A DNA stretch of 26,048 bases from positions 1-26,048 of the forward strand of contig DAOVYR010000001.1 of NCBI GenBank assembly GCA_030635525.1, read 5' to 3'. Below the pieces are notes generated by a model, which made no database searches, was not told where the DNA came from, and saw only the letters and a program-made list of their open reading frames with translations. Positions within the stretch are counted from its first letter, which is position 1, and each line of letters starts with the position of its first letter. The position numbers were made by a program, and so were the translations under genes. Source of the stretch: Candidatus Nanohalarchaeota archaeon (GTDB lineage Archaea > EX4484-52 > B79-G9). This document shows, in pieces, positions 2,117-25,392 of this stretch.

Positions 2117-2380
2117 TCACCCGCACTCAGGATAATCATCCGCCATATAATCCGCACCAGTAGTACTCACAGCACCAACAAACAAATTAACCCTCCACTC
2201 AAGCGCCTCCATACCGACCGCACCAGACCCCTCACGGCACACAAGAGTAAAATCCACATCAGTATCATATATCAACCCGAAACTCAATCCGCAGCATGTC
2301 TCACAGATCTCTTCCTCCTCCTCTTCATCCACGTACCCCCATTCATCCGCAACAGGCACCTCATACTTCTCGCCGGACAC
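2117..2380 (-). CDS. C-terminal part of the family C pilin-like gene, separated from 2396..3427 by an in-frame TAG
   Basis: Same frame as the upstream ORF (CCT GAT TAG GGG GAG TAT TGT GTT GTG TCC). Y-x4-D-x4-C...LEWR matches Y-x4-D-x4-C...LDWR at the C-terminus of paralog 16336..17436. Ends in a double TGA plus T-tract. Confidence 0.7.
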   Translation of the reverse strand: MSGEKYEVPVADEWGYVDEEEEEEICETCCGLSFGLIYDTDVDFTLVCREGSGAVGMEALEWRVNLFVGAVSTTGADYMADDYPECG

Positions 2381-2395
2381 AACACAATACTCCCC

Positions 2396-3427
2396 CTAAT
2401 CAGGATCAACTTCACAATCCGGCCTTTCACAAACAGACTCACTTGACACCCCATTGCATATTTTAGCAGTACCCCTGACCGCGCACCTGTCCCTCAAACA
2501 ACTTGCGCACGACTCACTGCAGCACCCCTCCGACTCATAACTGCGCCTCTTTTCATTAACAATAACCGGCTCCCTTATAGAAATACACTTAATCACCGCA
2601 TCACAACTCACATTCTCTCCTCCAAAATACATTCCGTCATAAACCAAAGTCCTGACAGCTTCATCCACAGCACTTCTCACAACATACTTCATCCTCTCCT
2701 CCCAGCATGGAAAAATCATCTCTGCCACCGTATCGGCATCAGGACAATATGGTCCGCTGCACGAGCAGGACTCAAAACTCAACCCCAAAGGCAAAATCGC
2801 ACCATCATTCAGCTTCCTCTCAATATTCTTCCGGACAACATCATCCAAAACCCACTCCTTCAATATCTCATAATCATACCGGAAATGATTTACCCCCAAA
2901 TCCTTCTCAACCACCACATCCTCATTGCTCACAAAAGAACTCCCGTCACTCATCCTGACATTCAGCCCACTGCCTCTGGCAACAATCTCCTTCTTATCAT
3001 CAGAAAATTCAGTATTCACGCAATCCATCCTGCCCACACTCAAAAAGTCAACCACATCTCCTTCATCTTCAATCAAAGAAATATACGAATTCACAATATC
3101 CATAGTCTCATCATTAACCTCCGAAAGAACATCGGAAAAACCAGGCACCTGCGGGACAACACACTGCCAATACCTAACCTCATCATTATCCCATCCCCCT
3201 TTTACCGCAACAGCACCCAAAGCATGACTGCCCGAAAGTCCAAGAGCCATTTCCACGTAAGAAAGAACCTTATAAGACTCCTCATTCAGCCTCGAAAAAA
3301 CAAGAGTCTCAGTAGAACTGATCTTTTCACTAATACCCATATTAGCATTATACTGCATCCATATAAGACCTGCAATAGCAAGCCCTATAATTATAAAACC
3401 CATAACAGCTACACTTACACCCTTCAT
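2396..3427 (-). CDS. Class III signal peptide (type IV pilin-like) protein, family C, Cys-rich; amber-interrupted
   Basis: MKG|VSVAVMGFIIIGLAIAGLIWMQY. Shares AVKGG...RYW...P...VL with 16336..17436 (AIAGGG...RYW...APTEEEVL). Start moved from 3451 to the ATG before KG. Confidence 0.8.
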   Translation of the reverse strand: MKGVSVAVMGFIIIGLAIAGLIWMQYNANMGISEKISSTETLVFSRLNEESYKVLSYVEMALGLSGSHALGAVAVKGGWDNDEVRYWQCVVPQVPGFSDVLSEVNDETMDIVNSYISLIEDEGDVVDFLSVGRMDCVNTEFSDDKKEIVARGSGLNVRMSDGSSFVSNEDVVVEKDLGVNHFRYDYEILKEWVLDDVVRKNIERKLNDGAILPLGLSFESCSCSGPYCPDADTVAEMIFPCWEERMKYVVRSAVDEAVRTLVYDGMYFGGENVSCDAVIKCISIREPVIVNEKRRSYESEGCCSESCASCLRDRCAVRGTAKICNGVSSESVCERPDCEVDPD

Positions 3428-3451
3428 ATCAATCATCCATAGACTTCTCAT

Positions 3452-3970
3452 TCACCATACATACAGGTACGCAATCGCATTTTCCCTGCTGTCCGCTATC
3501 GGAACAACAACCCTGTGCACCATAACATCAACATCATCACTCGGCACACTATTGAGTTCAAACGACTTAACACCATCCCTCTCAACAAAAAAATAATAAT
3601 TATAGTCTGGCAAAGTCCGGTCAAGATACTGCCTGACAACATCCATCGCATCTACCCTGGCACCGCCCGCCTGATACATCCAATCACTGGATTCATCACC
3701 GAACCGCTGCGATTCACCAATAACCCCTGCAACCGTACTATGAGCGCCATCAACATAATACATATTCACAAGCGCAATCTCCGCATACTTATACTTCTGC
3801 TGCTTCGCAATCATCTTCGAAGATTCAATCTTCTGGTTCTGCGTAACAAAAAAGAAATACAAAAAAACCACCGAAACAAGCATAATCACAGCCATGATAT
3901 TCAGCATTGACTCCTGCCCCTTTCTTCTAAAGCTCCGCCCCCCGCACAAACACTTCATAAAAACACACAT
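3452..3970 (-). CDS. Class III signal peptide (type IV pilin-like) protein, family A, minimal form (about 172 aa)
   Basis: RRKG|QESMLNIMAVIMLVSVVFLYFFF. Ends AIAYLYVW. TGATG overlap with the upstream gene. Confidence 0.8.
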   Translation of the reverse strand: MCVFMKCLCGGRSFRRKGQESMLNIMAVIMLVSVVFLYFFFVTQNQKIESSKMIAKQQKYKYAEIALVNMYYVDGAHSTVAGVIGESQRFGDESSDWMYQAGGARVDAMDVVRQYLDRTLPDYNYYFFVERDGVKSFELNSVPSDDVDVMVHRVVVPIADSRENAIAYLYVW

Positions 3971-4731
3971 CAATTAACAACTCTCAACAGTTTCTTATCA
4001 TGATTATATTTAAAAACAATATACTGAAGCCCTGCCTCAATCTGCATGAACTCAATATTATTGAAACTCAAAACCTTGCAAAAATCACCCGCGTACGTCC
4101 TAAGGCAGATGCTCTTCCTGCCATCCGCATCAGCCATCACAACCGGATAATCCAGCCTGATAGTCATAGAAGCACTCACATGCTTATCCATCTCAGACCC
4201 TGTCCTATACACCTTCTCAACCATCCCGACAACAGAGTCAAGATCGCCCTGCCTTAAATTCAGATTAAGCTCCCCCGCATTTACAGAACCGTCTTCATAT
4301 TTAATCGCAACAGGCATAGTGATCCCGAATTCATGCTTTAATCCATACACCCCCGAATCCTCTGCCTCTCCAAGCCGCCACGAACTCTCGTTTGGCGAAT
4401 CAATATCCCTGACAGTCGCACTCCACCCCAGTCTCTCATCCCGCGTACAGGGCGCCTCATTATTAACAAAATCCTCATTAAGCGCATCAAGCATACGCGC
4501 ACTCACAAGATAAGGATATCTGGTAGAATCACATGAAATGCAATCTATAACCTCATCAAACACAGGAATCGCCTTTGACTTAAAATCATATTCCTCTGCT
4601 TCCTGGGCAATACTAACATTCACCTCCAGAGTCTTTATCACAAAAATCGCAAATATACTTATAAGTATGATTAACATTATCGGCTGCGTAAATATATTTA
4701 TCTGCCCCTTATTCTGTTGCTCCCTAATCAT
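3970..4731 (-). CDS. Class III signal peptide (type IV pilin-like) protein, family B (253 aa)
   Basis: MIREQQNKG|QINIFTQPIMLIILISIFAIFVI. Shares DCI, GW..VRD...W..G, MP[VI]AI, GDL..V.G and DYP with 18784..19554. Start moved from 4848 to 4731, giving an 8-nt overlap with the upstream gene. Confidence 0.85.
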   Translation of the reverse strand: MIREQQNKGQINIFTQPIMLIILISIFAIFVIKTLEVNVSIAQEAEEYDFKSKAIPVFDEVIDCISCDSTRYPYLVSARMLDALNEDFVNNEAPCTRDERLGWSATVRDIDSPNESSWRLGEAEDSGVYGLKHEFGITMPVAIKYEDGSVNAGELNLNLRQGDLDSVVGMVEKVYRTGSEMDKHVSASMTIRLDYPVVMADADGRKSICLRTYAGDFCKVLSFNNIEFMQIEAGLQYIVFKYNHDKKLLRVVN

Positions 4732-5221
4732 CACTGCCCTCACAATCCTTGCATTTAGGGTCGCACACATCAAACAATCTGCACCCTTTATCGCATACTT
4801 CATCATCAATATTACATATTCCCGGGCACGTACCCTCCTTGAGCTCAATAATGCCCGATGTTTTGCGTATGCATATTGCCTGTGAATTCTCTATATCCGC
4901 ATCCCTGACATCTTCCGAAAGAATAACAGACACCGCATCTCTCGTCGGGTATTTTATAGAAAGTCTCCGCTCATCAACAGTCAGCCTATATGTTCTGGCA
5001 GAGATATCATACAGATACTCAACATTATCATGTTTGGACAAATAAACCATGCTTATCTTCGACTTCAATTCACCTGCAAACTCCCTTTCAGATGTAGCGA
5101 ACACATTGCTTATCTGGTAAATCACAAGATTATAAAACGACGCAAAAAACAATATCGACGCAATTAAGCCTCCAATAAAAAGAACAGACTCCACAGTAAC
5201 AGACGCTCCCTTTCGCCTCAT
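4724..5221 (-). CDS. Class III signal peptide (type IV pilin-like) protein, family D, minimal form (165 aa)
   Basis: MRRKG|ASVTVESVLFIGGLIASILFF. Ends in Cys-rich CNIDDEVCDKGC...DVCDPKC, as in 19568..22060 and 22176..23135. Start moved from 5320. Confidence 0.85.
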   Translation of the reverse strand: MRRKGASVTVESVLFIGGLIASILFFASFYNLVIYQISNVFATSEREFAGELKSKISMVYLSKHDNVEYLYDISARTYRLTVDERRLSIKYPTRDAVSVILSEDVRDADIENSQAICIRKTSGIIELKEGTCPGICNIDDEVCDKGCRLFDVCDPKCKDCEGSDD

Positions 5222-5431: not shown

Positions 5432-6901
5432 CTAATAATAACTCCACTCAAAATACCCGTCACCGTCAAAATCATCGCATGTGCCCCTTGAAAGATCATA
5501 GCACAATCCCAGGCAGCACACCGCATTATCTATTGAGAGCACATCGCAATCCGCATTGCTCTTGCACGGGGGTAGAGGAATAGCATCTATATTTCCAAAA
5601 GAGAAACTCTCAGTAAAATCCTTTGTCGGCAGGCATCCCACTTCATCCGCGAAGTAATCTACCTGTACCTTCAACTCACTCATATCCGTTGCTGTGGTCT
5701 CGATAATGATCTCAGACGTCTCACCGCCAAAAAGACTCTGCGGCGCATAAAGTATTTCATATTCCGGCGCATTCAGGCTGACAGTATCAATATGCGCAAG
5801 CATATCGCCTGTGTTCTCGACCATCACGCGCAGGTAAAGCGGCGCACCCTCATACAAAGTAGGCTGATAATAAGATCTCTTTATCTCAATATCCGGTCCC
5901 CTCTCACCGAGAGCAGGGTCGACTTCAGTCAATGTCATAGAATGGCTTGCACCGAACATCGACATTTCAAAATACTCATAAATCCAGTTCATGTCACTGA
6001 AATGATTGCCTCCGGTTCCGCTAAATCCAATCCTTGGATTATTTTCTTCATTTCCATATATTAATGGTTTAAACGTAGGCAGATAATTATATGCAATAGA
6101 AGGAACAGCGAATTTATCACCCCAGTTTGTGGAAGATAGACTGTCAAAATACATCATGCATATGGGATTTGTATCTACCTGATAGACCGACTCATCTTCG
6201 CTTTCACTTTCATCTAAAGGCGTCATTTCATCCTGGCAGCAGAGGAGCGAAAGATAAGCACTCCATACTCCATAATTACTGTCGACAGGAGTGCGATATA
6301 CGACAATATCCTCCCTGTTTACAGCATCATTATCAACAACATAAGTATCTGGCAGTGTGTCGCTCATAGTCGGTCTGTAGTTATTAGGATAACTGTTTAC
6401 CTTATGCCATTCAATAAGGTCTGTCAACATGCTTTCCAATTCTGGACAACTCAACCACTGTATAGGCGGCGTATCTTCAGGTCCTCCTTTTGAGAACCAT
6501 TCACCCGATTTCGTATCTGCAAACGTATTCAACTCATCGCCCTTGCAGAATGTGTCTCCGTCTTTTAATACATAACCTCTGTCAACAATCTGGAGCGACG
6601 AATATAGATTAATTGCCGTGTGAGTAATAAAAGGACCGTAACAGACAGGGCAATAGGAACTGGTGGTTCCTTCTTTTCTACATCCGTGCCCATCAATAAT
6701 ATCCTCCTCCAGTTCACCTAGGCTGTATCTCACGATATCCAATGCCTCAACATTCTCGCTCACTGCAGTCAATGCTTCGGGGTCAGTGATATTAAGCCCC
6801 CTCGACTGGATATGATTCACATACCCGCTTGCCATTGACACAATCATAAAAAAGCATATCATTGCCATACCAATAATAATTGATTTTTTTGTAATTTTCA
6901 T
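5432..6901 (-). CDS. Secreted or surface protein with a C-terminal Ig-like (CARDB-type) domain and Cys/Asp-rich tip (489 aa)
   Basis: Sec-type N-terminus MKITKKSIIIGMAMICFFMIVSMASG. LYEGAPLYLRVMVENTGD...SLFGGETSEIII is typical of Ig-like beta-sandwiches. Ends CKSNADC...CCLGLC...CDDFDGDG. Confidence 0.7.
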   Translation of the reverse strand: MKITKKSIIIGMAMICFFMIVSMASGYVNHIQSRGLNITDPEALTAVSENVEALDIVRYSLGELEEDIIDGHGCRKEGTTSSYCPVCYGPFITHTAINLYSSLQIVDRGYVLKDGDTFCKGDELNTFADTKSGEWFSKGGPEDTPPIQWLSCPELESMLTDLIEWHKVNSYPNNYRPTMSDTLPDTYVVDNDAVNREDIVVYRTPVDSNYGVWSAYLSLLCCQDEMTPLDESESEDESVYQVDTNPICMMYFDSLSSTNWGDKFAVPSIAYNYLPTFKPLIYGNEENNPRIGFSGTGGNHFSDMNWIYEYFEMSMFGASHSMTLTEVDPALGERGPDIEIKRSYYQPTLYEGAPLYLRVMVENTGDMLAHIDTVSLNAPEYEILYAPQSLFGGETSEIIIETTATDMSELKVQVDYFADEVGCLPTKDFTESFSFGNIDAIPLPPCKSNADCDVLSIDNAVCCLGLCYDLSRGTCDDFDGDGYFEWSYY

Positions 6902-8535
6902 GAATCTTCCCCTCCTTCTTTTTTATTTCTGCGCGCCTGCACAAGCAAAAACGCAGCGATCAAAAAAGTTATAGAAAAAATCACGACTAATGCCCTGACT
7001 GAATTGAATGAACCCTCCCCGTCAGGTACTTTCGGCTCGACACCAGCGTCTCCGGCTGCAAGCGCAATTGAAGTTTCAGCTGACAGATCGTGATTCGTTT
7101 CTCTTGCGACAATCTTGTATGACCCTTCAGCACCATAAATCTTGATGCTTTCATAAAATGTGCCGTCAATATTCTGGTCTTTGACGCGATGGATGATATC
7201 TCCGTCAGGATTCATTATATAGGCAAGTATATTCCCTCTCAGGTTATTGTTCTCATCATCTTTGAATGTGACCGTATAACGGAGTGTATCACCCTGCTTG
7301 TACAGGGATTTATCAGTATCTACATTCAGGGTCTTCTCAGTATTTTTGAATTTGGAATAATCATATATCAGTGTAATCTCATCAGCCATATTATCATTCT
7401 TATCATAAAGGCGCATCTTCAATGTCAAATAATTCGCGCTCTCTTTTGGCACAAACTCCCAGTTGACACCCATCGGGTCAGCGCTGATTATCCTCGTGTC
7501 CATTACATCAGTATATATTGTATTTCCGCTCTTGTCCCTGATCTCTACAGTGCCATGACCTTCAAATGTGCTTGAGTGATCTGCCGTATTTGAGACGCAG
7601 GCAAATACAGTTGTCTTTTCACCTGTCTCAAGCGGGAATCTGTCAATGCCAAGATACCCGATACCTCCTTTGGAACCCCCTACAGCGAGTCTCATCTTGA
7701 GTATTGATTTCTCATCCGCGCTCGTGGCAACGAATTTAATCTCATATGCGCCTGTTTTAAGCGCAGGTAGATCATACATGATATCTTCCACACCATTTGC
7801 TTCAAGAACAATTATCTTTTCCAGAGAATATTCTGCAATAGGTCTTTCAGTAACATCATCCCAGTCATATACATTCATTTTCAGTGTGACTTGCTTCTTT
7901 GCAGTGCCCTCATTTACCAGCTTTGTCTTGATACTGAGCGGCGTCGATGCATCAAAAGACGGGGAATTGGTCCCGAATGTATATTTATTATCATTGATAG
8001 TTGTGGATTCTTTATCAAGATATATGCGCGACACAGCATCTGCATTTTTCACATTGAACGTAGTCATTTCTCCCGGCACCCCCGGCGGTCCGTATGGAAG
8101 CATGCTTATCCCTACAAGATTGAACTTTTCACCTACAATGAAATATGTTTTCACCGTATATTTTCCGCCCTTTGCACCGCTAGGTACTTTCCATTTGAAA
8201 TAGAACGGAATCTTATCATCCCTATAGAGGCTGATATCATCTTCTGAGATAAATTCATCAACCATGTGCTCTATATCCTCAGGGCCGTCATAGAATATCT
8301 GCACCCTCACTTTACCCTCGACAATAGGCGCATCCATGTGGCTCAAAAGATTATAAAAGACACGGACCTCGTCACCAGGGGCATAACTCACCTTCTCCGG
8401 ATGCAGGTCATTGAATTCAAGCCCGCTCTGGAACTTATAGTACTTGAAACAGTCAGCATTTTCACTTGCAGCAAAAGCATGACTCGGCATGCACAAAATC
8501 AAAGCCACCATAATTGATATAATTATCTTTTTCAT
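6898..8535 (-). CDS. Membrane-anchored cell-surface protein with multiple Ig-like/MG2-like beta domains (545 aa)
   Basis: RBS AGGTGAT 4 nt before ATG. Signal peptide MKKIIISIMVALILCMPSHAFA. Repeated EKVSYAPGDEVRV / DKSLYKQGDTLRY motif. C-terminal TM plus basic tail (VVIFSITFLIAAFLLVQARRNKK). Confidence 0.75.
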   Translation of the reverse strand: MKKIIISIMVALILCMPSHAFAASENADCFKYYKFQSGLEFNDLHPEKVSYAPGDEVRVFYNLLSHMDAPIVEGKVRVQIFYDGPEDIEHMVDEFISEDDISLYRDDKIPFYFKWKVPSGAKGGKYTVKTYFIVGEKFNLVGISMLPYGPPGVPGEMTTFNVKNADAVSRIYLDKESTTINDNKYTFGTNSPSFDASTPLSIKTKLVNEGTAKKQVTLKMNVYDWDDVTERPIAEYSLEKIIVLEANGVEDIMYDLPALKTGAYEIKFVATSADEKSILKMRLAVGGSKGGIGYLGIDRFPLETGEKTTVFACVSNTADHSSTFEGHGTVEIRDKSGNTIYTDVMDTRIISADPMGVNWEFVPKESANYLTLKMRLYDKNDNMADEITLIYDYSKFKNTEKTLNVDTDKSLYKQGDTLRYTVTFKDDENNNLRGNILAYIMNPDGDIIHRVKDQNIDGTFYESIKIYGAEGSYKIVARETNHDLSAETSIALAAGDAGVEPKVPDGEGSFNSVRALVVIFSITFLIAAFLLVQARRNKKEGGEDS

Positions 8536-8585: not shown

Positions 8586-9887
8586 CTAACACATTATCTT
8601 CGCAGCAGCACGAAACTCAAACCCTTCAATCCCATTCATAAGCGGTACTTCAGCATAATTTGTAGTTGACATGACCCCGCACCCGCAATAGCACCCGCTC
8701 TCATCAAAATGAAGTTCTTCACGAATTGCCGAAAGAATCTTATTCGCCGCTACCTCTTGAGGCACATTGATCTCCTGCTTGATACCCTGCGCCTCTTTAA
8801 ACTCCGCATCAGGCATGCTCGAATAATCCGTCGTCAAAAACAACTTCCCCCCGGAATCCACATAATCCCGAACAGCATTAATTTCTGCATCAGACCACAG
8901 CCTGACATCCTCGCAGATAACCTCCCCGCTCCTCGAAACCCCGTATATGTCCTCACCCGAGCACCATCCCGGCCTGAAAATCCACACCTGCCCATAACTG
9001 CCAAGCAACGCAGGCGTTATTTCAGCATCATGCCTGAAATCATCAACAGTAATACTCTGTGCTTTAATACTATCAGTCAACTCCTCAAAATTCGCCAAAT
9101 TCGGATCCATCTTATTATCCTCCCATATAATAAGCATGGTATCATCCACCCCCAAAAGATTATTGAAATACCCCGCCACATTAGCCGCAAAATCAACCGT
9201 GGCCTTTGGCACATTGCATACACTTGAAGTACCCGCATGATTGCAAAAAGGCGTAGTATCCCCAAGCAAAACCATCTCATCCTCAACCATCACACACGTT
9301 GGCTGTCTGTTGCACCCCATAAGCACAGTATAATTGCACCTTGAAAAGACGCAGCCCGTCTCTGACACTGTCGCTTCAATATCATCCGCAAGCACCGAAA
9401 CACCGCACTCATTTTTCACAAAATAAGTAGGAAACGTAGTATATGTCGGCTTCTTCAAAATCTTATCCGCAAGCGACAAAACAGTCTTCTTCTGCCCGAA
9501 ATAACTCATCTCAATCTCGCACTTCAACCTTCGGCACGTCAGCCTGTCCTCCCTCAACTTCATGCACAAGTAACTCCCGACAAACGTCTCATGCTTCTCC
9601 ACCTTTTCATCAAACTCTTCCGGGAACACCTTATCATCATTCGCAATATAAAGACCCTCGACAATATCCGGGATACTGATATCATAGAAATCCTCCTCAC
9701 CCTCGCTGGCCGTACACAATGTATTAGTGCGCGTATATATTTCAGAAAACTGCTGTTTCGCATCTTGTCGCGCATTCTCCATAAAAACCTTACTAAGCAT
9801 ACTCGTAAATGTCCCGATAACCAGAAGCCCGATAATCAGCCCTGAAATCACCCAGTTCCACGCAAACGCCTTTCTTTGACTATTCAT
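8586..9887 (-). CDS. Class III signal peptide protein, family E, with a C-terminal GATase-like/DUF4350-like alpha/beta domain (433 aa)
   Basis: MNSQRKA|FAWNWVISGLIIGLLVIGTF. Core C...LC...C...C.I.MSY.G shared with 23233 and 24835. C-terminal AEINAVRDYVDSGGKLFLTTD resembles class I GATase-like folds (tentative). Confidence 0.75.
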   Translation of the reverse strand: MNSQRKAFAWNWVISGLIIGLLVIGTFTSMLSKVFMENARQDAKQQFSEIYTRTNTLCTASEGEEDFYDISIPDIVEGLYIANDDKVFPEEFDEKVEKHETFVGSYLCMKLREDRLTCRRLKCEIEMSYFGQKKTVLSLADKILKKPTYTTFPTYFVKNECGVSVLADDIEATVSETGCVFSRCNYTVLMGCNRQPTCVMVEDEMVLLGDTTPFCNHAGTSSVCNVPKATVDFAANVAGYFNNLLGVDDTMLIIWEDNKMDPNLANFEELTDSIKAQSITVDDFRHDAEITPALLGSYGQVWIFRPGWCSGEDIYGVSRSGEVICEDVRLWSDAEINAVRDYVDSGGKLFLTTDYSSMPDAEFKEAQGIKQEINVPQEVAANKILSAIREELHFDESGCYCGCGVMSTTNYAEVPLMNGIEGFEFRAAAKIMC

Positions 9888-9909: not shown

Positions 9910-10701
9910 TCACATTGCCGGCAATTCCTCGACTCTCTCATCTTCATAGACCCCGACTTTCGACGGCCATTCCTGACCATCAATTGTGACCTCAAACAAA
10001 AGGATTGGAACATCATCCCACTTCCATGGCCCCCTGGCATTCATAGAAACCACGGTCTTCCCCTCGGACTCATAGTGGCTCTCAATCAACTCTCTTGCCC
10101 TCTCTTCACTAAGCGACAACTCTATTAACTCACACTTCTTAGTATCTGTATTGCATTCCTCAGAAGGATTAGTACAAAAGCAGTCAATGCAGCAGGTATA
10201 TGGCTCCTCTGGTGACTCGCACCTGCCATCTCCGCATACGGGCTTAACACATATTTTCTCAGTAGGCGAACAGCGCATCCCCGTTCCACACCTGCAATCC
10301 TTGCAGTCAAAACAATTCTCAGACGCATCACAAACCCCGTCTCCGCACTCAGGCCCTTCAGGCTCTATTTCCTTTTCTACACACTTCTTCTCAAAAGAAC
10401 ATTCCTCATCTGCTTTGCATCCGCAGTCTTTCACGCAGTCCGCGCAATTCTCAGTCTTATCACACTTCCCGTCACCGCAAACTATTTTCGGATCCACCGG
10501 CGGATTATCACCAGAAGGACCATTATCGCCGGAATCTCCACCCATAAAAGAAAATATTGCAACAATAAGAACAATCACAACAGCAAGCCCTCCAACAAGA
10601 AATAACACTTTCTTCTTATCAATCTCTGCGCCAGCATCCTCTGTTTGATATTGCCCCGCACCTTCATCTGCACTATATTGATTAATCACATAAATCACCA
10701 T
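9910..10701 (-). CDS. Single-pass membrane protein with three CGDGxC Cys-rich repeats and a possible PepSY-like C-terminal domain (about 263 aa; alternative GTG start 10689)
   Basis: TM VLFLVGGLAVVIVLIVAIFSF. Repeats CGDGKCDKTENCADCVKDC, CGDGVCDASENCFDCKDC, CGDGRCESPEEPYTCCIDC. The track start at 10776 lies inside the upstream gene and was rejected. Confidence 0.75.
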   Translation of the reverse strand: MVIYVINQYSADEGAGQYQTEDAGAEIDKKKVLFLVGGLAVVIVLIVAIFSFMGGDSGDNGPSGDNPPVDPKIVCGDGKCDKTENCADCVKDCGCKADEECSFEKKCVEKEIEPEGPECGDGVCDASENCFDCKDCRCGTGMRCSPTEKICVKPVCGDGRCESPEEPYTCCIDCFCTNPSEECNTDTKKCELIELSLSEERARELIESHYESEGKTVVSMNARGPWKWDDVPILLFEVTIDGQEWPSKVGVYEDERVEELPAM

Positions 10702-13037: not shown

Positions 13038-13102
13038 AAACACACCCAAGCCTACCAATTATATCTAACAATATATATTGTCAAAGTACTATATATAATT
13101 TA

Positions 13103-13238
13103 TTCCCAAGTGGGTCCAATACACCGCAGCTTGCTGCGGATATAATTCACTTGGGAAGACTAAAAATCGCCGACTTAGAAATTCGCGTAATACTCCGGAG
13201 CTTGCTCCGATTGGGATAGCGAATTTCAGGCGATTTTT
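13103..13238. repeat. Tandem pair of long hairpins, each capped by G-CTTG-C (REP-like element or structured RNA)
   Basis: Hairpin 1: ttcccaagtg (13103-12) / cacttgggaa (13148-57) with inner ccgcag-cttg-ctgcgg. Hairpin 2: aaaaatcgcc (13162-71) / ggcgattttt (13229-38), gaaattcgc / gcgaatttc, inner cggag-cttg-ctccg. Confidence 0.8.
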
Positions 13239-13262
13239 TTTATTTCAGGAAATAATCATTCG

Positions 13263-13712: not shown

Positions 13713-13741
13713 ACCACTATTTATACAGAGCCAGATTTATA

Positions 13742-13780: not shown

Positions 13781-13830
13781 GCTTGAAATCCGCCAAATGC
13801 CTCGAAATTTCATGACTGATTTACCGCAAA

Positions 13831-15551: not shown

Positions 15552-15565
15552 CAGTATATATAATT
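15552..15565 (-). promoter_or_regulatory. TATA-box-like motif (minus strand AATTATATATACTG)
   Basis: TTATATAT begins about 30 nt upstream of the ATG at 15534. Near-identical copies at 17500-17514, 17518-17531 and 22152-22166. Confidence 0.55.
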
Positions 15566-17539: not shown

Positions 17540-18787
17540 TCAATTCCACTGTTTCAGCGTAAGATTCAGATACTCAAAATTCGGCATCGGCGTAGCCACA
17601 ATAAACGACCGTATCCTCTTTCCTTCAGGTATCTGTGAGCCAAGCCTTACAGGCTCTCTTGCAAACGATTGATTGTACACCATATCCCTTATCGAATCAG
17701 ATGCTGATGAACCCGCCGATAAATCAAACATTTCACCGCCCGTTTCATTACCCATCTCAGTCATCCATTCACTCAACAATCCTTTGCCACAGTCACAATA
17801 AGTGACTCCTCCTGTAGTTTCAACAGTCAAATCCACACAATCATTTGGATTATTGGAAAAACATATCACTCCGCACGAATCTGCTTTCAATGGAAATATC
17901 TTTACCTTATTATCTTTTGCAGACCCTATACCCTTATCAAGAGTTTTTCTCTGTGTTCCGCAACCCGCTTCGGTGCATCCGCACTCACTACCGGCAGTTA
18001 GCTCATCAGATAACGGCATCCCTATTCTGATAGAGAAATCATTCCATCCATCTTCACCTGGTCCGGCCTCAGATAGACAAGCAACTCCATTGCCCCAGTC
18101 TTCATCTGTTGTATGCGGATAAGAACATTCAGTTTCCTTTTCAGAAATCGCATGACAGTCAAAATCCGGTATATCTGCAAAATCCGCACAAGTAACTGTT
18201 GCTGTATGCACTATACTGGTTGTCATATTGTCCTTCCAGTAGCATGTAGCCTGCGATTCCAGGAAATACAAATCAATCGTCGTATCTTTCCCTTCCTTTT
18301 TTAATTCATTTAATATATCCGGAACTTCTGTTTTAAGAGCCATAATATCATCACACATAGACCTCGATGTATCAGCCACAACAAAAATCTGCACACCAGA
18401 CCTGTGCGGTATCGGCAGCGTCAGATTCCAATGTCCTTCCCCGTAAATCGCATCAAGCCTCTTTGCAACCTCTTCGTCCACATTGATGACAAGCGGATTC
18501 TTAGGTCCCCCAAGATCAACAGTAGTATTCTCAAGAAACCCTACATACCCCAGGAGCTCAAGAAAAGTCTTCCCGCTCCGATCCTCAGTCATCACCATAA
18601 ACGCATTCACACCGGACCTGAAAGACGCTTCCTCCTGCGCACTCTGCCCTGTCCCCTGCGTCGTAAGCTTCTGGTCAACCACAACAGATTTCAGGACAAT
18701 AATAATGATAGTAACAACAACAACAAGAATCAAAAAATTAAGTATCTCTCCAGCCTGTCCCTTCTTAATGTTTCTCATCTTCATCAT
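17540..18787 (-). CDS. Class III signal peptide protein, family A, with an inserted von Willebrand factor A domain (415 aa)
   Basis: KKG|QAGEILNFLILVVVVTIIIIVL. MIDAS DxSxS as IFVVADTSRSM (18359-18373), later MPLSDE. KIFPL and TGGEMFDL are vWA-like strands. Ends LTLKQWN, like family A. Confidence 0.8.
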   Translation of the reverse strand: MMKMRNIKKGQAGEILNFLILVVVVTIIIIVLKSVVVDQKLTTQGTGQSAQEEASFRSGVNAFMVMTEDRSGKTFLELLGYVGFLENTTVDLGGPKNPLVINVDEEVAKRLDAIYGEGHWNLTLPIPHRSGVQIFVVADTSRSMCDDIMALKTEVPDILNELKKEGKDTTIDLYFLESQATCYWKDNMTTSIVHTATVTCADFADIPDFDCHAISEKETECSYPHTTDEDWGNGVACLSEAGPGEDGWNDFSIRIGMPLSDELTAGSECGCTEAGCGTQRKTLDKGIGSAKDNKVKIFPLKADSCGVICFSNNPNDCVDLTVETTGGVTYCDCGKGLLSEWMTEMGNETGGEMFDLSAGSSASDSIRDMVYNQSFAREPVRLGSQIPEGKRIRSFIVATPMPNFEYLNLTLKQWN

Positions 18788-19554
18788 GTTCTCACCACCA
18801 CCATGTCTGAAGAATACCTGTACTCTGCTGATATCTGATATTCTCCTCTTACCTTAATCCCGTCAAAGAATATCTCGCAATACATATCTCTGCACACTTT
18901 ATCCTTGCCAAGCACCATGCACAATTTTCCATCTTCATATAATATCGGATAATCTATATGAAATGTCCTTTTATCTTCAAAACTGCTGTAACTTCTTCTC
19001 CCTGCCATACAAATATAGTCAAAAAATCCTGCCACCCGCTCAAGATCCCCTGAAAATGTAGTGACCTTGATCCTCCCGGGATTTACCTCTGTTGCAGAAT
19101 GCCTTATTGCAATCGGCATTGAAGACACTTTTCTCTGGTCAAGCACTCTGTTCGCGATCTTCTTATCGTAATCCGGTGCCCCGAATGTCCATACATCATC
19201 AGTCATCAAATCCCTGACCTCAACATGCCACCCGCGAATATAATTTCTCGCACACTCCGGCTCTACATCAGCATATTTTTTCTCAAACTCTTCAAGTTTT
19301 TCAACAGACACAATTGAGCCATAAACCCCCAGCTCAAGAGGATTATATGCAATGCAATCCTCGGAATTAGTCAAGATGGATATTGTGGCACTTGTATCAA
19401 CAATCGCATCAATCGCCCCGGCATCTTTATACGCCTGCATTTTATAGTTTTGCAGCGCATAAAAAATCACAAACAGTACAATGATTGTCATAATCAGCGC
19501 AATCGGCTTCACAATATAATATTGTCCCTTTTTGGTATTATTATCTACTGACAT
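18784..19554 (-). CDS. Class III signal peptide protein, family B (256 aa)
   Basis: TKKG|QYYIVKPIALIMTIIVLFVIFYAL. Paralog of 3970..4731. ATGA overlap with 17540..18787. Confidence 0.85.
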   Translation of the reverse strand: MSVDNNTKKGQYYIVKPIALIMTIIVLFVIFYALQNYKMQAYKDAGAIDAIVDTSATISILTNSEDCIAYNPLELGVYGSIVSVEKLEEFEKKYADVEPECARNYIRGWHVEVRDLMTDDVWTFGAPDYDKKIANRVLDQRKVSSMPIAIRHSATEVNPGRIKVTTFSGDLERVAGFFDYICMAGRRSYSSFEDKRTFHIDYPILYEDGKLCMVLGKDKVCRDMYCEIFFDGIKVRGEYQISAEYRYSSDMVVVRT

Positions 19555-19567: not shown

Positions 19568-22060
19568 TTAACATCCCATTGGATTTCCTGCCTCCATTGG
19601 ATTCCTCTTAAATGGGCATGATACGCTGTTATCTGCAAGTATGCTGCATCCCTCTGTAATTGCATGTGGATGATGTATAGAGCAACTTGACAGATCATCG
19701 CACCACGGGCAGTCACACTCCACATCACCGCCATTTACCTCGCAGTTATCAGCATCCGTCGGTATTATCGCTTGCCCGTCACAGACAATCCCCTGGAAAC
19801 CATACCGTCCATTATCATTCCATAAATCCTTCATACTTGTACAATATAAATCACCGCTTAAAGTGCTCATCGGGTAGACCTCATGAAATGTTGTATCAAC
19901 AACAATCCAGTTTCCATCCCCTGCAGCATTGCATTCATCAACAATAAACTGCCCTCCCTGATGCAACTTATAATTACCATATTTACCAAGATTCTCAATC
20001 GAGCTATCGCACTGTAAAAGATTCCATGCATGAGCCGTATCACCGACATTATAGAATGCAGACCATACATTATGCGCAGGAACACCAAGTGTCCTCAATA
20101 TACTGGTCACCGCAGTAGAATGGTCCCCACAGTAGCCTACACCGCAGCACTTATCATATACTTCCGCAGTAATAGTGCACGCACCATAGCATGAACTTGC
20201 CGGCGGGCAACAGTTTTGGAAATCTGCGAAATAATCTTCATTATGAACTATAGTCTTACTTGCAGGTTGCACAAGCGTAGCACTGTACCTGCTGCCATCA
20301 AACGCCCACCCGTCCGGCGAATCCGCTAACCAGTTCTCAATCACCTGCTCTATGTCCCATCCGCGCCTATCAAGGAAATTCATAACATCCCGCTGGCAAA
20401 CCTCAAGAGCATCAGTATGCCACACAAGCCCATCCTGATCAATAACCGACTTAGTCCACACACCTATATCAACCTTCGCCCCGCAATCCGGCTCTCCGCA
20501 GTCCGGATCCCATCTCTTCCACCTGCTCAGATCACAGTCTGTGTCGCAGACACCATCATCAACAGTTGAACAACGGCTATCCCCGAAAACGCTCGCACTT
20601 CCGGGTCCGCCGCCACCGGGACAGTCCGCAGCATCGGCAGCACACGGTCCGGTGCAGACCCATGCGCATCCATTATCATTCCCAATGCAATCCGGATCAG
20701 CTGCTGCACCAAAACATGGATAATAACCATTCATATCCGCCCAATCACCAATGCATGTCTGCTCACTATAGCAAATACCGTCTGCTGCATCAGTACAGTC
20801 TTCAAAATTATGCCCTGGAACAGGCAATGTTGTAGTATAAGGGGTCTCCCAGTTTTTTGGATGCGTACCGTCAATTCCAATAGGCCATTTTGCAATATGA
20901 TTAGGTATATCCTCACTCGCAGACGAAAATGGGCTAATCTCACACCATCCGTTCCCGTCGCATGCAGGCTTGTTTGGATCAGAATTATCAGCGCAAATCA
21001 TCGACCCGGGGCAGCATGCCAGATCAAGTCCCATATCCTCCCCGCAACATGGTATGCTTGAACAATCATCACCCTCTCCCGCGCACTTCCCGCAATCAGG
21101 GTCATACAGCCCGCCGCAATCAGGATCGCATATCCCATTCTCACTCCTGTCAAGCCATGAAGTATTCACAGGTCCCGCGCAATCAAGATCACACACTCCG
21201 TCCGGATAAAGCCTCTTAACAACTGTACCCTTATACCCGCAGTCAAGATCGCAAAACCCATCCTCAGAAACAAAAGTCCCGTTAACATCAGTCATATTAT
21301 ACTTATTACAGTCAACATCACAAATCCCCCAGCTTGACGTCCCGTTATTCAGGCAGTCAATATCACACATACTATCCTCATCCATATGCGAATCACCGTC
21401 ACATATCCTATCCTCGTCAGTAGACCTTTTGTACCCTTTCCCGTCATCCTCAAAAGCCCTGATGCAGTCCCTTGCCTCATTCACCTTATCCTCTTCATTA
21501 GTAAAGCAGTCCCTGTCACATATATTGTCGCTTGCAAGAGAACAGCGGTCATCACACACCTGATCCTCAACCTCATCCACATTGCAGTCCGGGTCGCAGT
21601 CAGCATTCACTATACATGCCGGATCGCATCTATTATCATTAGTATTGCAAATGCACTTATCATCACTCAATGCAATGCGCATATCATCCTGATTCTTCAC
21701 CATGCACAGATATTTTGGCTTCTCAATCGTATAAGGTCTCGTATGCGTAAGTGCCATAAAAGGCGCACTATAACTCTTTCCGTCTGCACTCACTTTAAGC
21801 CTCTTATAATCCACCTCTACATCCACATTCATACCCTTCGGTAGCGTGTAAAGTATGCCCACACTGCCTGCCTCAGCAGCAACCCTGTCAATACTTACAG
21901 CAATATCCTTTGCAACAAAAGCAAGCGCAGATTCTTCAGCCGCCTCAGACTGCCCGCCAAAAATCATAGAACCCATAGACGCCATCAGCACAAACGAAAT
22001 AATTACACCGAAAGCTAACAAAACAGTTTCAGAAATCACAATTGCTCCTTTACGCTTCAT
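19568..22060 (-). CDS. Class III signal peptide protein, family D, with a Cys/Asp repeat stalk and a C-terminal transglutaminase-like (Cys-His-Asp) domain (830 aa)
   Basis: MKRKG|AIVISETVLLAFGVIISFVLM. About 11 CDxDC-type repeats. GYCGDHSTAVTSILRTLGVPA (Cys 20129-31), AHAWNL (His 20030-32), WIVVDTT (Asp 19895-97). Start moved from 22135. Confidence 0.85.
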   Translation of the reverse strand: MKRKGAIVISETVLLAFGVIISFVLMASMGSMIFGGQSEAAEESALAFVAKDIAVSIDRVAAEAGSVGILYTLPKGMNVDVEVDYKRLKVSADGKSYSAPFMALTHTRPYTIEKPKYLCMVKNQDDMRIALSDDKCICNTNDNRCDPACIVNADCDPDCNVDEVEDQVCDDRCSLASDNICDRDCFTNEEDKVNEARDCIRAFEDDGKGYKRSTDEDRICDGDSHMDEDSMCDIDCLNNGTSSWGICDVDCNKYNMTDVNGTFVSEDGFCDLDCGYKGTVVKRLYPDGVCDLDCAGPVNTSWLDRSENGICDPDCGGLYDPDCGKCAGEGDDCSSIPCCGEDMGLDLACCPGSMICADNSDPNKPACDGNGWCEISPFSSASEDIPNHIAKWPIGIDGTHPKNWETPYTTTLPVPGHNFEDCTDAADGICYSEQTCIGDWADMNGYYPCFGAAADPDCIGNDNGCAWVCTGPCAADAADCPGGGGPGSASVFGDSRCSTVDDGVCDTDCDLSRWKRWDPDCGEPDCGAKVDIGVWTKSVIDQDGLVWHTDALEVCQRDVMNFLDRRGWDIEQVIENWLADSPDGWAFDGSRYSATLVQPASKTIVHNEDYFADFQNCCPPASSCYGACTITAEVYDKCCGVGYCGDHSTAVTSILRTLGVPAHNVWSAFYNVGDTAHAWNLLQCDSSIENLGKYGNYKLHQGGQFIVDECNAAGDGNWIVVDTTFHEVYPMSTLSGDLYCTSMKDLWNDNGRYGFQGIVCDGQAIIPTDADNCEVNGGDVECDCPWCDDLSSCSIHHPHAITEGCSILADNSVSCPFKRNPMEAGNPMGC
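21729..21811. repeat. 83-nt perfect direct repeat, copy 1
   Basis: Identical base for base to 22804-22886. Confidence 0.9.
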
Positions 22061-22151
22061 ATTCACGTCTCTAATACTACTCAATATATATCTACTAAAC
22101 ACATATATTGTAGCAACTACTATATAAAATTTCAAACCATTCCTTCAATTT

Positions 22152-22166
22152 CAGTATATATATTAT
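22152..22166 (-). promoter_or_regulatory. TATA-box-like motif (minus strand ATAATATATATACTG)
   Basis: Shares agtatatatattat with 17501-17514. Lies in the AT-rich gap upstream of 19568..22060. Confidence 0.5.
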
Positions 22167-22175
22167 TATCTCCCA

Positions 22176-23135
22176 TCAGAATCCCATATCACAATCCATA
22201 TCATACAACTCCCCGCAGTCAGGATCGCATACATTATTCACAATAGCGCAATCAAGGTCACACACCCCATCCTCATAGAGCATCTTCACCCCATTATCTC
22301 CCGCAACATACCCGCAATCCAGATCACAAAACCCGTCTTGTGAGAAATACACCCCATTCTCCATATACATCCCATACTTATTGCAGTCAACATCACAAAG
22401 CCCCCAGCTTGACGTCCCGTTATTCATACAGTCAATATCACACATCTCATCCTCAACCATATGTGAATCCGCATCGCATATCCGGTCCTCACTAACAGAC
22501 CTCTTATAGCCATTATCATCAGTCTCAAAAACATCAATACAATCCCTTACCTCATTCACCATATCCTTCTCATTAGTAAAACAATCCATATCACATACCC
22601 TATCACCCTCCTTTGAACACCGCCTGTCGCACACCCTGTCCTCAACCCCATCCGCATTGCACGCCGGGTCACATGCAGGCCCAACAATGCATGCCGGATC
22701 GCACCGTTTATCAGCAGTATAGCACACGCACTTATCCTTGCTCAAAGAAATCCTCATATCATCCTGGTTTTTCACCATGCACAGATACTGTGGCTTATCG
22801 ATTGTATAAGGTCTCGTATGCGTAAGTGCCATAAAAGGCGCACTATAACTCTTTCCGTCTGCACTCACTTTAAGCCTCTTATAATCAACATCCACATCCA
22901 CTTTCATCCCCTTGGGCACTTTGTAGACCATGGCCACACTGCCCGCCTCCGCCGCCACACTATCCAGATTCAAAGCAATATCCTTCGCAACAAGCGCAAG
23001 CGCCGAAATATCCGCCGCCTCAGACTGCCCGGAAAAAAGCATAGATCCCATAGTTCCCATCAGTACAAACGATATAATGATGCCAAAAGCTACAAGAACA
23101 GTTTCAGAAATAACAATTGCGCCCAGCCGCCTCAC
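22176..23135 (-). CDS. Class III signal peptide protein, family D, with a Cys/Asp repeat stalk and no catalytic domain (319 aa)
   Basis: GTG start, RRLG|AIVISETVLVAFGIIISFVLM. Colinear with the N-terminal part (about 320 aa) of 19568..22060, ending CDPDCGELYDMDCDMGF. Confidence 0.85.
   Translation of the reverse strand: MRRLGAIVISETVLVAFGIIISFVLMGTMGSMLFSGQSEAADISALALVAKDIALNLDSVAAEAGSVAMVYKVPKGMKVDVDVDYKRLKVSADGKSYSAPFMALTHTRPYTIDKPQYLCMVKNQDDMRISLSKDKCVCYTADKRCDPACIVGPACDPACNADGVEDRVCDRRCSKEGDRVCDMDCFTNEKDMVNEVRDCIDVFETDDNGYKRSVSEDRICDADSHMVEDEMCDIDCMNNGTSSWGLCDVDCNKYGMYMENGVYFSQDGFCDLDCGYVAGDNGVKMLYEDGVCDLDCAIVNNVCDPDCGELYDMDCDMGF
22804..22886. repeat. 83-nt perfect direct repeat, copy 2
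   Basis: Identical to 21729-21811. Confidence 0.9.
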
Positions 23136-23232: not shown

Positions 23233-24123
23233 TCAGCAGTTTGAGTCTGCTAAATCAATATCTCCGTCACAGTCATTATCAATACCATCGCCGCAATTTG
23301 TTTCTACTGCACCACAATCCGAATCCTCATCATCAATACAGCCGTCGCGGTCATTATCCATAGCATCATCACATATTGTCTCACTCAACTCTATACAATG
23401 TTTGCTCCAGTCATCCCCCATTACCCCTTGTGGGTTATCAGGATCTGCGCAATAACCGCACCTCTTCTTCACAACGCACACACAGTTTTCACATTTCATA
23501 TAAGAGCACGAGCCATATATCGGCTCACATGTAGTGGGCAGCGAATCACACTCCTCGCCAATATCCACATTCCCGTTCCCGCACGGCGAATCCTCCTTCA
23601 GGGATATTATCTTTTCAGAATTAATGCTCACCAAATCCTCACCGCTTTTAACAATAACCATTTCATAAGCATGCACAACATCTTCCCCTATTATTTGGTT
23701 CACCCGCGAAAAAAGGTTCTGCTCAAGACTCGGAGTGCCCAGGTACGACATATTAACATCACAACGAAGTTCCTCGCAATGCGGCTCATCACCATAGAAT
23801 TGTATGCACAAAAACTTACCCTCTGACCGCGTTTCTTGACTTATCATAACCGAAACCTTGTCCGGCGGTGGACCGGAAACATCAGAACTATAGATTGCCT
23901 TAATATCATCCGGGAAACTGCACTTATGAGGATAAATATTTTCAAGCCCTCCCTGGCACACCATCCTCGTCTTTGCCACCAGTTCAGAAAATTCCTGCAC
24001 AGCCATATATCGCTGCGTATCACTTAGCTGGTTGCCTCCGATAGACATACCGATAGCAAACACCATCATACCCATAGTAGTAAGGCCAAGGATCCATATC
24101 CATGTTGCTATTTCCGCTTTCAT
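23233..24123 (-). CDS. Pilin-like protein, family E, with C-terminal CGNG..EECD and DGIDNDCDG-type Cys/Asp repeats (296 aa)
   Basis: MKA|[23 protein letters not shown] (short, atypical leader). Family E core. Tail [53 protein letters not shown]. Confidence 0.8.
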
Positions 24124-24171
24124 AAATACCACAATAAAATATATTATTATCCTATATAAATAATTTCCAGA

Positions 24172-24786
24172 TTATATACCGGGAATTCCTAAAAAAGCAC
24201 TTTCTGCAAACTGGTACAGCAAATAAATCCCTGCCAATGCCGCTCCGATAAACGCCAGATAAACAATAATCTCAAGAATCTTTGCGATAGCTGACAGGAA
24301 ACTGTGCTTCGGCTTAGCAGGAACCTGCACCATCACAGGAGGTTGTTGAGGCGGAACCTGCCCGGGAGTTTGTTCCTGCGGCACCCCTGCCACCGGCGGC
24401 AACGGCTGATTCTGCACCATCTCATCGGGTCTGCGATACTTCTCTTGTGACTCATAATCTCTCATCATTCCATCTCTTTTGGGCCTCTCCTCAGAATCAT
24501 AAGATACCCTCCTGCTTCCATCATCAATCTCACTTTCATCCGCGTTCGTCATTTTTTCTCTCTCATAACCATCCTGCTCATACTCATTACTTCCGAATCC
24601 GGGTGTTCTCGACCTTTCATCATCCCTAGTTGTGTTATTTTCGGGGCATCCTTCACAATATTCAGGACTACCCAAGCCAGTATTTTGCCCTGCCGACTCA
24701 CCTGCAGGAACAATCTTAGTGCCGCAGCCAAAGCAATATCTTTCCCCTGCCTTTACCAACGCACCGCAATTTGGACAATATGGCAT
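24172..24786 (-). CDS. Zinc-ribbon membrane protein (204 aa)
   Basis: RBS GGTGA before the ATG at 24786. MPYCPNCG...YCFGCG double CxxC, charged and P/Q-rich linker, C-terminal TM (ILEIIVYLAFIGAALAGIYLLY). Confidence 0.8.
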   Translation of the reverse strand: MPYCPNCGALVKAGERYCFGCGTKIVPAGESAGQNTGLGSPEYCEGCPENNTTRDDERSRTPGFGSNEYEQDGYEREKMTNADESEIDDGSRRVSYDSEERPKRDGMMRDYESQEKYRRPDEMVQNQPLPPVAGVPQEQTPGQVPPQQPPVMVQVPAKPKHSFLSAIAKILEIIVYLAFIGAALAGIYLLYQFAESAFLGIPGI

Positions 24787-24834
24787 AAAATTCACCGCTT
24801 AAACATTTCGCACAACAGCTTATATAATTTTAAT

Positions 24835-25392
24835 TTATTTCAAAACCGGTTTTGCCTCAATCAGAACATTATCCTTGCCAGTCTTTGCAATACTCACCTT
24901 ATAGTTAAACACTCCTCCGGAAAGCCGTGCAATCCTATCAAGTTTCGACCCAGTGCGCGGAGTACCTATATATGTCATAGTGACATTGCATGCTGTCTTT
25001 TTACAATTAAACGTATCAAAATCATGCTCGACCTGGAACTGGTAGCACATATAATATCCGGAGGTAGCATTAAGATTTTCAATATAATATGGAGCCGAAT
25101 CATGAGGCGGCCCGTCATTTTCAGACACATATATCGCATAGACATCCCTGTTCACAGAGATGTCTTTTCCATATCTTGAACCTTTTGGCATTGAACATAT
25201 CTCATTTGCAGTATTATATATCATATTGTACTTTTCCACAACCTGCTGATTATTCAATTGCACAATAAGCATCATGATATTCTGCTGCGCACTCGCAAAA
25301 ACAAACGCCGCCATCATAATGCCTATAATGATCCACACCCATATAGACATGGAAATACCTTTACTCTTATTCATGCGCGAATTCATCTTCAT
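24835..25392 (-). CDS. Class III signal peptide protein, family E, minimal form (about 185 aa)
   Basis: KSKG|ISMSIWVWIIIGIMMAAFVF. EIC...YAIYVSE...YMCYQF...C...CNVTMTYIGTP. TATATAT begins about 30 nt upstream of the ATG at 25392. Confidence 0.85.
   Translation of the reverse strand: MKMNSRMNKSKGISMSIWVWIIIGIMMAAFVFASAQQNIMMLIVQLNNQQVVEKYNMIYNTANEICSMPKGSRYGKDISVNRDVYAIYVSENDGPPHDSAPYYIENLNATSGYYMCYQFQVEHDFDTFNCKKTACNVTMTYIGTPRTGSKLDRIARLSGGVFNYKVSIAKTGKDNVLIEAKPVLK

Follow-up and report, generated by a model that had tools for sequence, protein, structure and literature searches.

Gene content and order of the locus

The window analysed here, the complete 26,048-nucleotide (nt) contig DAOVYR010000001.1 of a Candidatus Nanohalarchaeota archaeon (assembly GCA_030635525.1), carries a large locus of pilin-like genes with class III-type N-termini interleaved with genes for exported enzymes, an arrangement that probably serves to display adhesins and enzymes on a type IV filament (T4F). 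The contig (C56) amounts to approximately 2% of the genome DNA in a 1.25-Mb assembly of 213 contigs that is 79% complete. Every credible gene of the contig lies on the minus strand, and genes have been numbered from g25 (upstream, 25392) down to g01 (609). Relatives used for comparison are seven congeneric genomes, including G001 and G002, and two metagenome contigs, at 50-95% identity; G021, a genome from a different family of the same order, and the metagenome contigs L106 and L107 have been drawn on in addition.

By BLASTP and profile comparison with the N-terminal helices trimmed, the pilin-like proteins form four multi-member families, namely A (g07, g21 and g22), B (g10, g23 and g25), C (g06 and g20) and D (g04+g03 and g18), with g05, g14, g15, g16 and g19 being singletons by sequence. 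Within the families, hhalign gives 99.5% for g06 against g20 and 95.4% for g18 against g04; g07 is related to g21 and g22 (BLASTP 1.5e-10; hhalign 88-94%), g22 is 72% identical to g21 over 325 amino acids (aa), and g23 is linked to g10 and g25 by both BLASTP and hhalign. The first-pass annotation had counted six families of prepilin-like genes; the four multi-member families stand, while further groupings found no support, as g19 could not be sustained as g05 with an insert (BLASTP E = 1.2; hhalign 12%; cassette position alone in common) and the profile comparison supports no mutual homology among g14, g15 and g16.

The order B-A-C-x-D is present twice, as g25/g23, g22/g21, g20, g19 and g18 and again as g10, g07, g06, g05 and g04, and the triplet of small pilin-like genes g16-g15-g14 sits between the two cassette copies. 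Gene overlaps of 4-8 nt occur in the cassettes (g20/g19, 4 nt; g07/g06, 8 nt; g06/g05). In the N-termini given here, a slash follows the conserved residue pair. The upstream cassette opens with the family B pilin-like protein g25 (24835-25392; 185 aa; leader end KSKG/ISMSIWVW). It is followed by g24 (24172-24786), a protein with an N-terminal zinc ribbon (Pfam Zn_ribbon_3/Zn_Ribbon_1/DZR) and a C-terminal transmembrane helix that is kept between g25 and g23 at the same place in relatives, and by g23 (23233-24123), in which the family B core (MKA/EIATWIW) continues into a Cys/Asp-rich C-terminal extension with a weak NCBIfam match to an acidic double-disulfide repeat (4e-4). Family A is represented by g22 (22176-23135; RRLG/AIVISE), a short tandem paralog of g21, and by g21 (19568-22060; KRKG/AIVISE), where a pilin-like head, a Cys/Asp repeat stalk and a C-terminal transglutaminase-like domain are combined. 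At the nucleotide level, this tandem pair (19568-23135) has 77-83% identity over approximately 600 nt at a spacing of 1075. The cassette is completed by the family C pilin-like g20 (18784-19554; KKG/QYYIVKP), by g19 (17540-18787), with a pilin-like N-terminus (KKG/QAGEIL) and a von Willebrand factor type A (vWA)-like domain bearing the motif DTSRS, and by the family D pilin-like g18 (16336-17436; KKKG/MSTSS).

Between the cassettes, g17 (15565-16251) encodes an exported stand-alone Lon_C (S16) protein with a hydrophobic N-terminus, and the triplet consists of g16 (14887-15534; RRKG/AVMSYPEL; with KG/KA swaps in orthologs), g15 (14265-14837; KKG/LAIETIG) and g14 (13831-14268; RRKA/QMSLEYIAK), a candidate shaft subunit that is duplicated in G007 and whose nearest ESM Atlas cluster has 979 members, mostly DPANN. 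Further downstream, g12 (10695-13037) is an exported C25 (gingipain-type) peptidase on a Cys/Asp repeat stalk as in g21 and g22, and g11 (9910-10701) is a single-pass membrane protein with Cys-rich CGDG repeats. The second cassette starts with g10 (8586-9887), a family B core (QRKA/FAWNW) with approximately 260 aa of C-terminal cargo of unmatched fold and with a full-length relative, P0113, in another lineage. Inserted next are g09 (6898-8535), with a Sec-type signal, MG2/immunoglobulin (Ig)-like domains (Pfam MG2 2e-8) and a C-terminal anchor, and g08 (5432-6901), an exported Cys-rich protein with no family match. The cassette continues with the minimal family A pilin-like g07 (4724-5221; RRKG/ASVTVES), the family C pilin-like g06 (3970-4731; NKG/QINIFTQP), whose homolog in L107 has a vWA-like insert, and the small pilin-like g05 (3452-3973; RRKG/QESMLN), which holds the position of g19 and keeps its motif in seven orthologs.

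The family D gene that closes this cassette, g04+g03 (2117-3427; MKG/VSVAV), is one gene of 436 codons interrupted by a TAG at 2396-2398. It is a single open reading frame (ORF) in G001 and G002, with Tyr at the site, and contigs from four public runs, one of them near-identical, read G at 2396, giving TAC. The TAG of the window is an assembly error or a rare variant; programmed readthrough and gene decay are ruled out by the Tyr in orthologs and the TAC in the four runs.

The cytoplasmic cytidylyltransferase-like g13 (13263-13712; Pfam CTP_transf_like 3.7e-18) has the same position in all relatives and probably separates transcription units; the protein is basic, and the gene is flanked by the two longest intergenic gaps of the window (13038-13262 and 13713-13830), in which no Rfam match was seen. 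Downstream of the second cassette, g02 and g01 (609-2059; 4-nt overlap) encode acidic coiled-coil proteins, conserved directly downstream in G001 and G002, with no significant family and no signal sequence. Rfam and tRNA scans of the whole window gave no matches.

The source organism is a small-genome DPANN archaeon; the first-pass annotation had thought of a small symbiotic or predatory archaeon. The locus has been found in cold-seep and marine-sediment metagenomes from six studies, and the proteome is not acidic (median isoelectric point (pI) 8.3 for long ORFs). A haloarchaeal host is therefore unlikely, and the idea of a halophile, prompted by the label 'Nanohalarchaeota', is ruled out by the same observations. 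The proteins of the locus are Cys-rich with pI 4-5, as expected of extracellular disulfide-bonded proteins. Among the congeners the locus is syntenic with presence/absence differences: G002 is without g17-g19 and g08-g10, G001 is without g08 and g09 and has a short g10, and families B and C are present in seven of seven congeners.

Class III-like N-termini

The 15 co-oriented prepilin-like genes reported by the first-pass annotation are borne out at every start coordinate, each being a minus-strand ORF with a short basic leader, a [KR/L]-[GA] pair and then approximately 20 hydrophobic residues. The leader of g23 comprises just three residues, and g22, with a GTG start, has L at -2 in the window and K in G002. 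When all ORFs of at least 100 aa in the genome were crudely scanned for class III-like starts, 91 hits were obtained, 13 of them on the window contig; the density on this contig is 0.50/kb versus 0.064/kb (Fisher p = 2e-7), and the clustering of the N-terminal motif on the contig is not chance.

The [KR][GA] pair is kept in all orthologs aligned, with G and A swapping freely and leader length and sequence varying, and such alternation would be the behaviour expected at the -1 position of a processing site. Gln is found at +1 in five proteins (g05, g06, g14, g19 and g20), and the start of g14, with Glu at +5, resembles the Q-x-S-x-E type of Epd (DUF361) pilins, the substrates of EppA. Of 114 family B relatives with intact N-termini, 80 have [KR][GA] 2-5 residues before a conserved W-x-W.

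Family B as a predicted carrier of surface enzymes

An AlphaFold2 (AF2) model of g25, built on a 79-sequence alignment, has a mean predicted local distance difference test (pLDDT) score of 92.8; in it, residues 15-66 form a 52-residue helix that leads into a sheet of six to seven strands. In the ESM Atlas, it matches a cluster in which 40% of the members carry PF04021 Class_IIIsignal (template modelling (TM) score 0.59/0.73), a DUF7289 cluster (TM 0.51) and DPANN clusters without names (TM 0.62-0.73). Against AlphaFold DB clusters, family members come first and are followed, at E 1e-4 to 1e-2, by rows named class III signal peptide-containing protein, type II secretion system protein and archaeal flagellin. 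As modelled, the fold of family B is pilin-type relative to predicted archaeal pilins and not relative to solved ones.

A family B core profile searched against 1.84 billion cluster representatives retrieved 220 proteins (189 at E <=1e-10) of 114-1111 aa, always with the domain at the N-terminus; named sources are 'archaeon' and Candidatus Aenigmarchaeota. The 59 relatives of at least 300 aa were scanned against Pfam, and their C-terminal parts include Peptidase_M28 (six cases), C25 (four) and two cases each of papain C1, glycoside hydrolase family 5 (GH5) cellulase and Transglut_core, with single cases of pectate lyase, M64, M15_4, GH43, GH32, reprolysin-like and disaggregatase-related domains, besides beta-propellers, cohesin and CARDB. 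Even within the genus, the same core is found in orthologs of g10 with 165-723 aa and of g23 with 177-681 aa. This variety of cargo and length on one core points to family B as a carrier module for interchangeable surface enzymes, with a predicted carrier of approximately 170 residues and a folded head with four conserved Cys. Among 42 genomes of the phylum, family B turned up only in the genus of the window's genome (g1) and in G021. Solitary family B genes exist as well, and long g10-type paralogs in congeners likewise stand alone; on L108 (GCA_043805675.1 contig, 10001-13330), for example, no cassette lies near the gene for a family B protein of 1109 aa that has a disaggregatase-related domain.

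Enzymes and vWA-like domain of the locus

The C25, S16 and transglutaminase-like domains described by the first-pass annotation are present with their catalytic residues, and the pilin-fused Cys-His-Asp domain corresponds to the pilin-like head and putative triad of g21. Peptidase_C25 is matched by g12 at 6e-12 (45.9 bits against a cut-off of 23); its dyad motifs LAHG and MACGG and its GDPTL end are conserved in orthologs, the dyad being assigned by motif with no solved relative by sequence. For g17, Lon_C is matched at 2.6e-12 (47.2 bits against 21.1), and alignment with solved Lon structures puts its Ser (EGESMG) and Lys (ILDK) on the catalytic dyad, S679 and K722 in Escherichia coli Lon; having no AAA+ module, g17 is not a full Lon. 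The Transglut_core (PF01841) match of g21 reaches 1e-4 and 22.9 bits against a cut-off of 23, and four orthologs share its Cys (GYCGDHS), His (HAWN) and Asp (VVDTT). The pilin-like head is fused to the transglutaminase-like domain only, C25 and Lon_C having plain hydrophobic N-termini without a KG site.

In G002, the ortholog of g12 (L053, G002:C75, 9363-11108) keeps the N-terminal part and the Cys/Asp stalk and carries a HELGHTLGLGH metzincin-type motif in place of C25, so that the enzyme at the g12 position is exchangeable on the same stalk. The N-terminus of g12 matches a stand-alone 154-aa protein in L106 (8e-15); its candidacy as a g14-type pilin module was rejected (hhalign 5%).

The AF2 model of g19 (pLDDT 70) comprises an N-terminal helix (9-39, low confidence) and an alpha/beta domain, and with this moderately scored model Foldseek matches in the PDB are integrin beta-I, integrin I-domains, Cachd1 and TFIIH p44 (E 6e-5 to 1e-3; probability 0.97-1.0). 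The D-x-S-x-S motif (DTSRS) is invariant at D, S and S, and Pfam VWA_4 is matched at just 0.043. Paralogs of locus genes are found on other contigs of the genome: C67 has a g19-like gene with a family D gene on either side, C162 has a g11 plus C25 pair paralogous to g11 and g12, and C77 encodes a protein with a Lon_C domain.

Assembly machinery

The first-pass annotation had stated that ATPase, platform protein and peptidase must act in trans. Family scans of the window proteins revealed no ATPase, platform or peptidase gene, and ATPases and platforms are indeed encoded on other contigs; the part of the claim that concerns the peptidase found no counterpart, as an A24 prepilin peptidase of the PibD/FlaK/EppA type was not found in the assembly. 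T2SSE secretion ATPases are present on contigs C12, C107, C175 and C2, and the T2SSF platform is present on C12 and C107 and, weakly, on C175. Contig C12 combines an ATPase, KaiC-like genes and two platform genes with two canonical pilins matching Pilin_N, while on C107 a 599-aa ATPase and two platform genes accompany pilin-like genes that have KAQ/KGQ sites. On C175 (L067, 205-6450), a 761-aa T2SSE ATPase and a 711-aa polytopic platform-like protein adjoin three small pilin-like genes, two of them homologous to g15 and g14. Of the 42 genomes of the phylum, 39 encode the 711-aa protein, and congeners carry another, diverged copy across the ATPase from the first.

No T4F ATPase adjoins the locus on the syntenic contigs of 32.6 kb and 25.9 kb from congeners, nor is one present within 10 kb upstream on a 64-kb contig, and the ATPase therefore acts in trans. 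In other lineages the cassette is found next to the platform-like gene. In G021 (contig C5), the gene for a protein homologous to the 711-aa one (31% identity, E 9e-129) stands back to back with a B-A-x-C-x-D cassette, in which the x before D is g19-like and the protein at the family A position has a weak reprolysin-like match (E 0.002), followed by g15- and g14-like genes. On L107, the platform homolog is followed by five small pilin-like genes, a family B gene with M28 cargo, a family A gene, a gene for a Cys-rich protein, a family C gene with a vWA-like insert, a g19-like gene and two more genes, and L106 is arranged similarly; homologs of g15 stand beside the platform gene in all three. 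The strongest argument for assigning the cassette to a T4F system is this linkage, and, judged by gene neighbourhood, the C175-type machine would be the likeliest partner of the cassette. Around the ATPase-platform pair of the phylum's other families, class III-like ORFs were few or absent.

Proposed function and alternative explanations

Considered together, these findings make it reasonably probable that this contig of a cold-seep DPANN archaeon represents a locus for a surface organelle and encodes subunits of a T4F whose assembly machinery is encoded elsewhere. In such an organelle, g16, g15 and g14 would be the likeliest shaft or core subunits, and the two B-A-C-x-D cassettes would contribute the larger pilin-like proteins as modular or minor pilins. 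The N-terminal helix and small head of each would be built into the filament or its tip, and the variable C-terminal part would carry the function, such as the vWA-like, putative adhesion domain of g19, the transglutaminase-like enzyme of g21, the Cys/Asp-rich stalks and the cargo of g10. The Sec-exported C25 (g12) and Lon_C (g17) and the Ig-like proteins probably work at the same surface. Cleavage by an A24 peptidase, incorporation into the filament and service by the C175-type ATPase and platform we infer, as well as the target of the enzymes, which may be a host envelope or environmental polymers. The 'modular attachment-and-digestion apparatus' of the first-pass annotation, meant for a proteinaceous host envelope, stands in so far as the link between pilin-like proteins and enzymes is real and general, many hydrolases being carried by relatives of family B; the GH5, pectate lyase, GH43 and M28 cargo would fit scavenging of polymers and attack on a host equally well.

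Several observations weigh against the assembly of these proteins into a filament, and most of them would be readily accommodated if the N-termini were uncleaved signal anchors that hold type II membrane proteins, namely surface enzymes and adhesins, possibly filament-associated like ArlF/ArlG and none of them polymerising. A hidden Markov model (HMM) check against Pfam and NCBIfam gave no match of any of the 15 proteins to a curated pilin model (Pilin_N PF07790, Class_IIIsignal PF04021) at E 0.01, the best being g14 with Class_IIIsignal at a non-significant E of 0.53. Foldseek retrieved nothing for the g25 model among solved structures in the PDB, and in a wide VIA-align search the best Z was 4.6, with real pilins at Z 3-3.9, too weak to use; for families A, C and D, the pilin-like assignment comes solely from the N-terminus and the genomic context. 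Of the family B relatives with intact N-termini, 34 of 114, that is 30%, begin directly at the helix (MPAEWLY, MESVEVWMW), so that cleavage in family B may be non-universal and the signal-anchor explanation stays alive; in the locus itself, g12 and g17 manage with plain hydrophobic N-termini. Equally, the assignment of the platform on C175 rests on a sub-threshold T2SSF match and the position next to the ATPase, no public RNA run among those searched contained the locus, and the search for an A24 peptidase in the own 79%-complete assembly was negative both by Pfam and by tblastn with the proteins of three relatives. Yet this peptidase (approximately 298 aa, with 8-9 hydrophobic segments) is present in 30 of 30 relatives searched, including seven of seven congeners, and by synteny with G002:C1 the missing gene should lie approximately 1.5 kb past the end of C107. 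Moreover, the conservation of [KR][GA] in all 15 genes and their orthologs with alternation of G and A, the resemblance of the 52-residue helix plus sheet of family B to class III signal peptide clusters, and the linkage of the cassette to the platform-like gene and small pilins in distant lineages are against mere anchoring, which we regard as unlikely.

Two further explanations give the enzymes another role. With five distinct pilin-like proteins, each cassette is reminiscent of the GspG-K sets; the locus also contains exported enzymes that have no pilin head, and one AlphaFold DB row is named type II secretion system protein, as if the cassette built a short pseudopilus that releases or positions the Sec-exported C25, Lon_C, g08 and g09 and itself has no carried functions. 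Fusion of many family B and A members to enzymes points to display and not to piston-like secretion, however, neither an outer membrane nor a secretin is expected in an archaeon, and the family scans showed none in the locus; such a device is highly improbable. Alternatively, the proteases and the transglutaminase-like enzyme might trim, cross-link or degrade the pilins themselves, a role in pilin processing or degradation that has been proposed for transglutaminase-family peptidases linked to type IV pili (T4P) (Makarova et al., 2016; PMC4858521) and which would agree with the conservation of the enzymes inside the locus. The interchangeability of the enzyme type, with C25 in the window replaced by HExxHxxGxxH in G002 and a weak reprolysin-like match (0.002) in G021, does not favour maturation factors, and the glycoside hydrolases and pectate lyase among the family B cargo are unable to process pilins; we consider this role quite improbable. 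A prediction of the complex of trimmed A (g07), g05, B (g25) and C (g06) scored 0.57 and a control with B replaced 0.59, which speaks neither for nor against binding. Going beyond a filament that displays enzymes and adhesins, the ATPase of approximately 760 aa, the fused platform-like protein of approximately 710 aa, the small pilin triplet and the B-A-C-x-D cassette might together constitute a distinct DPANN-wide T4F subtype, an enzyme-tipped pilus that grips and breaches the host envelope; we hold this broader proposal to be rather doubtful.

Significance and comparison with known systems

Attachment of DPANN archaea to other cells and their feeding on them are poorly known, and pilins have been scattered, poorly captured or unannotated in surveys (PMC13705601; PMC9563170; PMC4858521): a 2026 survey of archaeal T4F found DPANN pilins scattered and probably under-detected (PMC13705601), and a study of Nanohaloarchaeota had no annotated pilins (PMC9563170). 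The locus supplies candidate subunits, a conserved gene order and a searchable carrier of approximately 170 residues that marks surface-displayed enzymes in metagenomes, and its proteins could be tested for a part in host contact or polymer degradation in cold-seep communities. No description of the B-A-C-x-D cassette or the family B carrier was found in the literature.

Modular pilins are known in bacteria, where vWA, lectin and even peptidase modules are established, while the design principle is hardly described in archaea. In Streptococcus sanguinis, PilB has a vWA module and PilC a lectin module, and S74 and M26 peptidase modules are predicted in bacterial pilins (Raynaud et al., 2021; PMC8179133). 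The proteins described here equally combine an N-terminal pilin-like module with a grafted functional module, which is a vWA-like domain in g19, and the expected place is the filament tip. On the other hand, their leaders are of archaeal type ([KR][GA], often with Gln at +1) and without the IPR012902 N-methylation motif, known pilin HMMs do not recognise the carriers A-D, and the cargo covers a broader range, most of it hydrolytic. If its proteins are filament subunits, the modular pilin principle would extend to archaea with enzymes as cargo.

Transglutaminase-family surface peptidases have been noted beside archaeal clade 1 T4P, and the vWA-bearing TadG is part of Tad pili (PMC4858521). With the Epd pilus, or T4F system 1, of Methanococcus maripaludis and with its descendant in bacteria, the Tad pilus (Flp, TadE, TadF, TadG), the locus shares the presence of minor pilin-like genes in one operon with more pilins elsewhere, and the Gln at +1 and Q-x-S-x-E-like start of g14, with its non-significant Class_IIIsignal match, recall Epd. 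The layout of C107, a single ATPase with two platform genes, is that of system 1 (PMC13705601), and the A24 peptidase adjoins this locus in relatives. In contrast to system 1, other lineages link the cassette to the C175-type ATPase (approximately 760 aa) and platform-like protein (approximately 710 aa) and not to the two-platform locus, and enzyme-fused subunits have not been described for Epd.

The four or five pilin-like proteins in conserved order with frequent overlaps and one vWA-like domain resemble the tip complexes GspH-I-J-K and FimU-PilVWX-PilY1, in which PilY1 has a vWA domain; no sequence or significant structural similarity to them was found. Binding proteins of ATP-binding cassette (ABC) transporters are likewise held at the surface by a pilin-type N-terminus and T4F assembly, and the locus differs from them in its cargo of hydrolases and adhesion domains and in a carrier that has a folded head with four conserved Cys.

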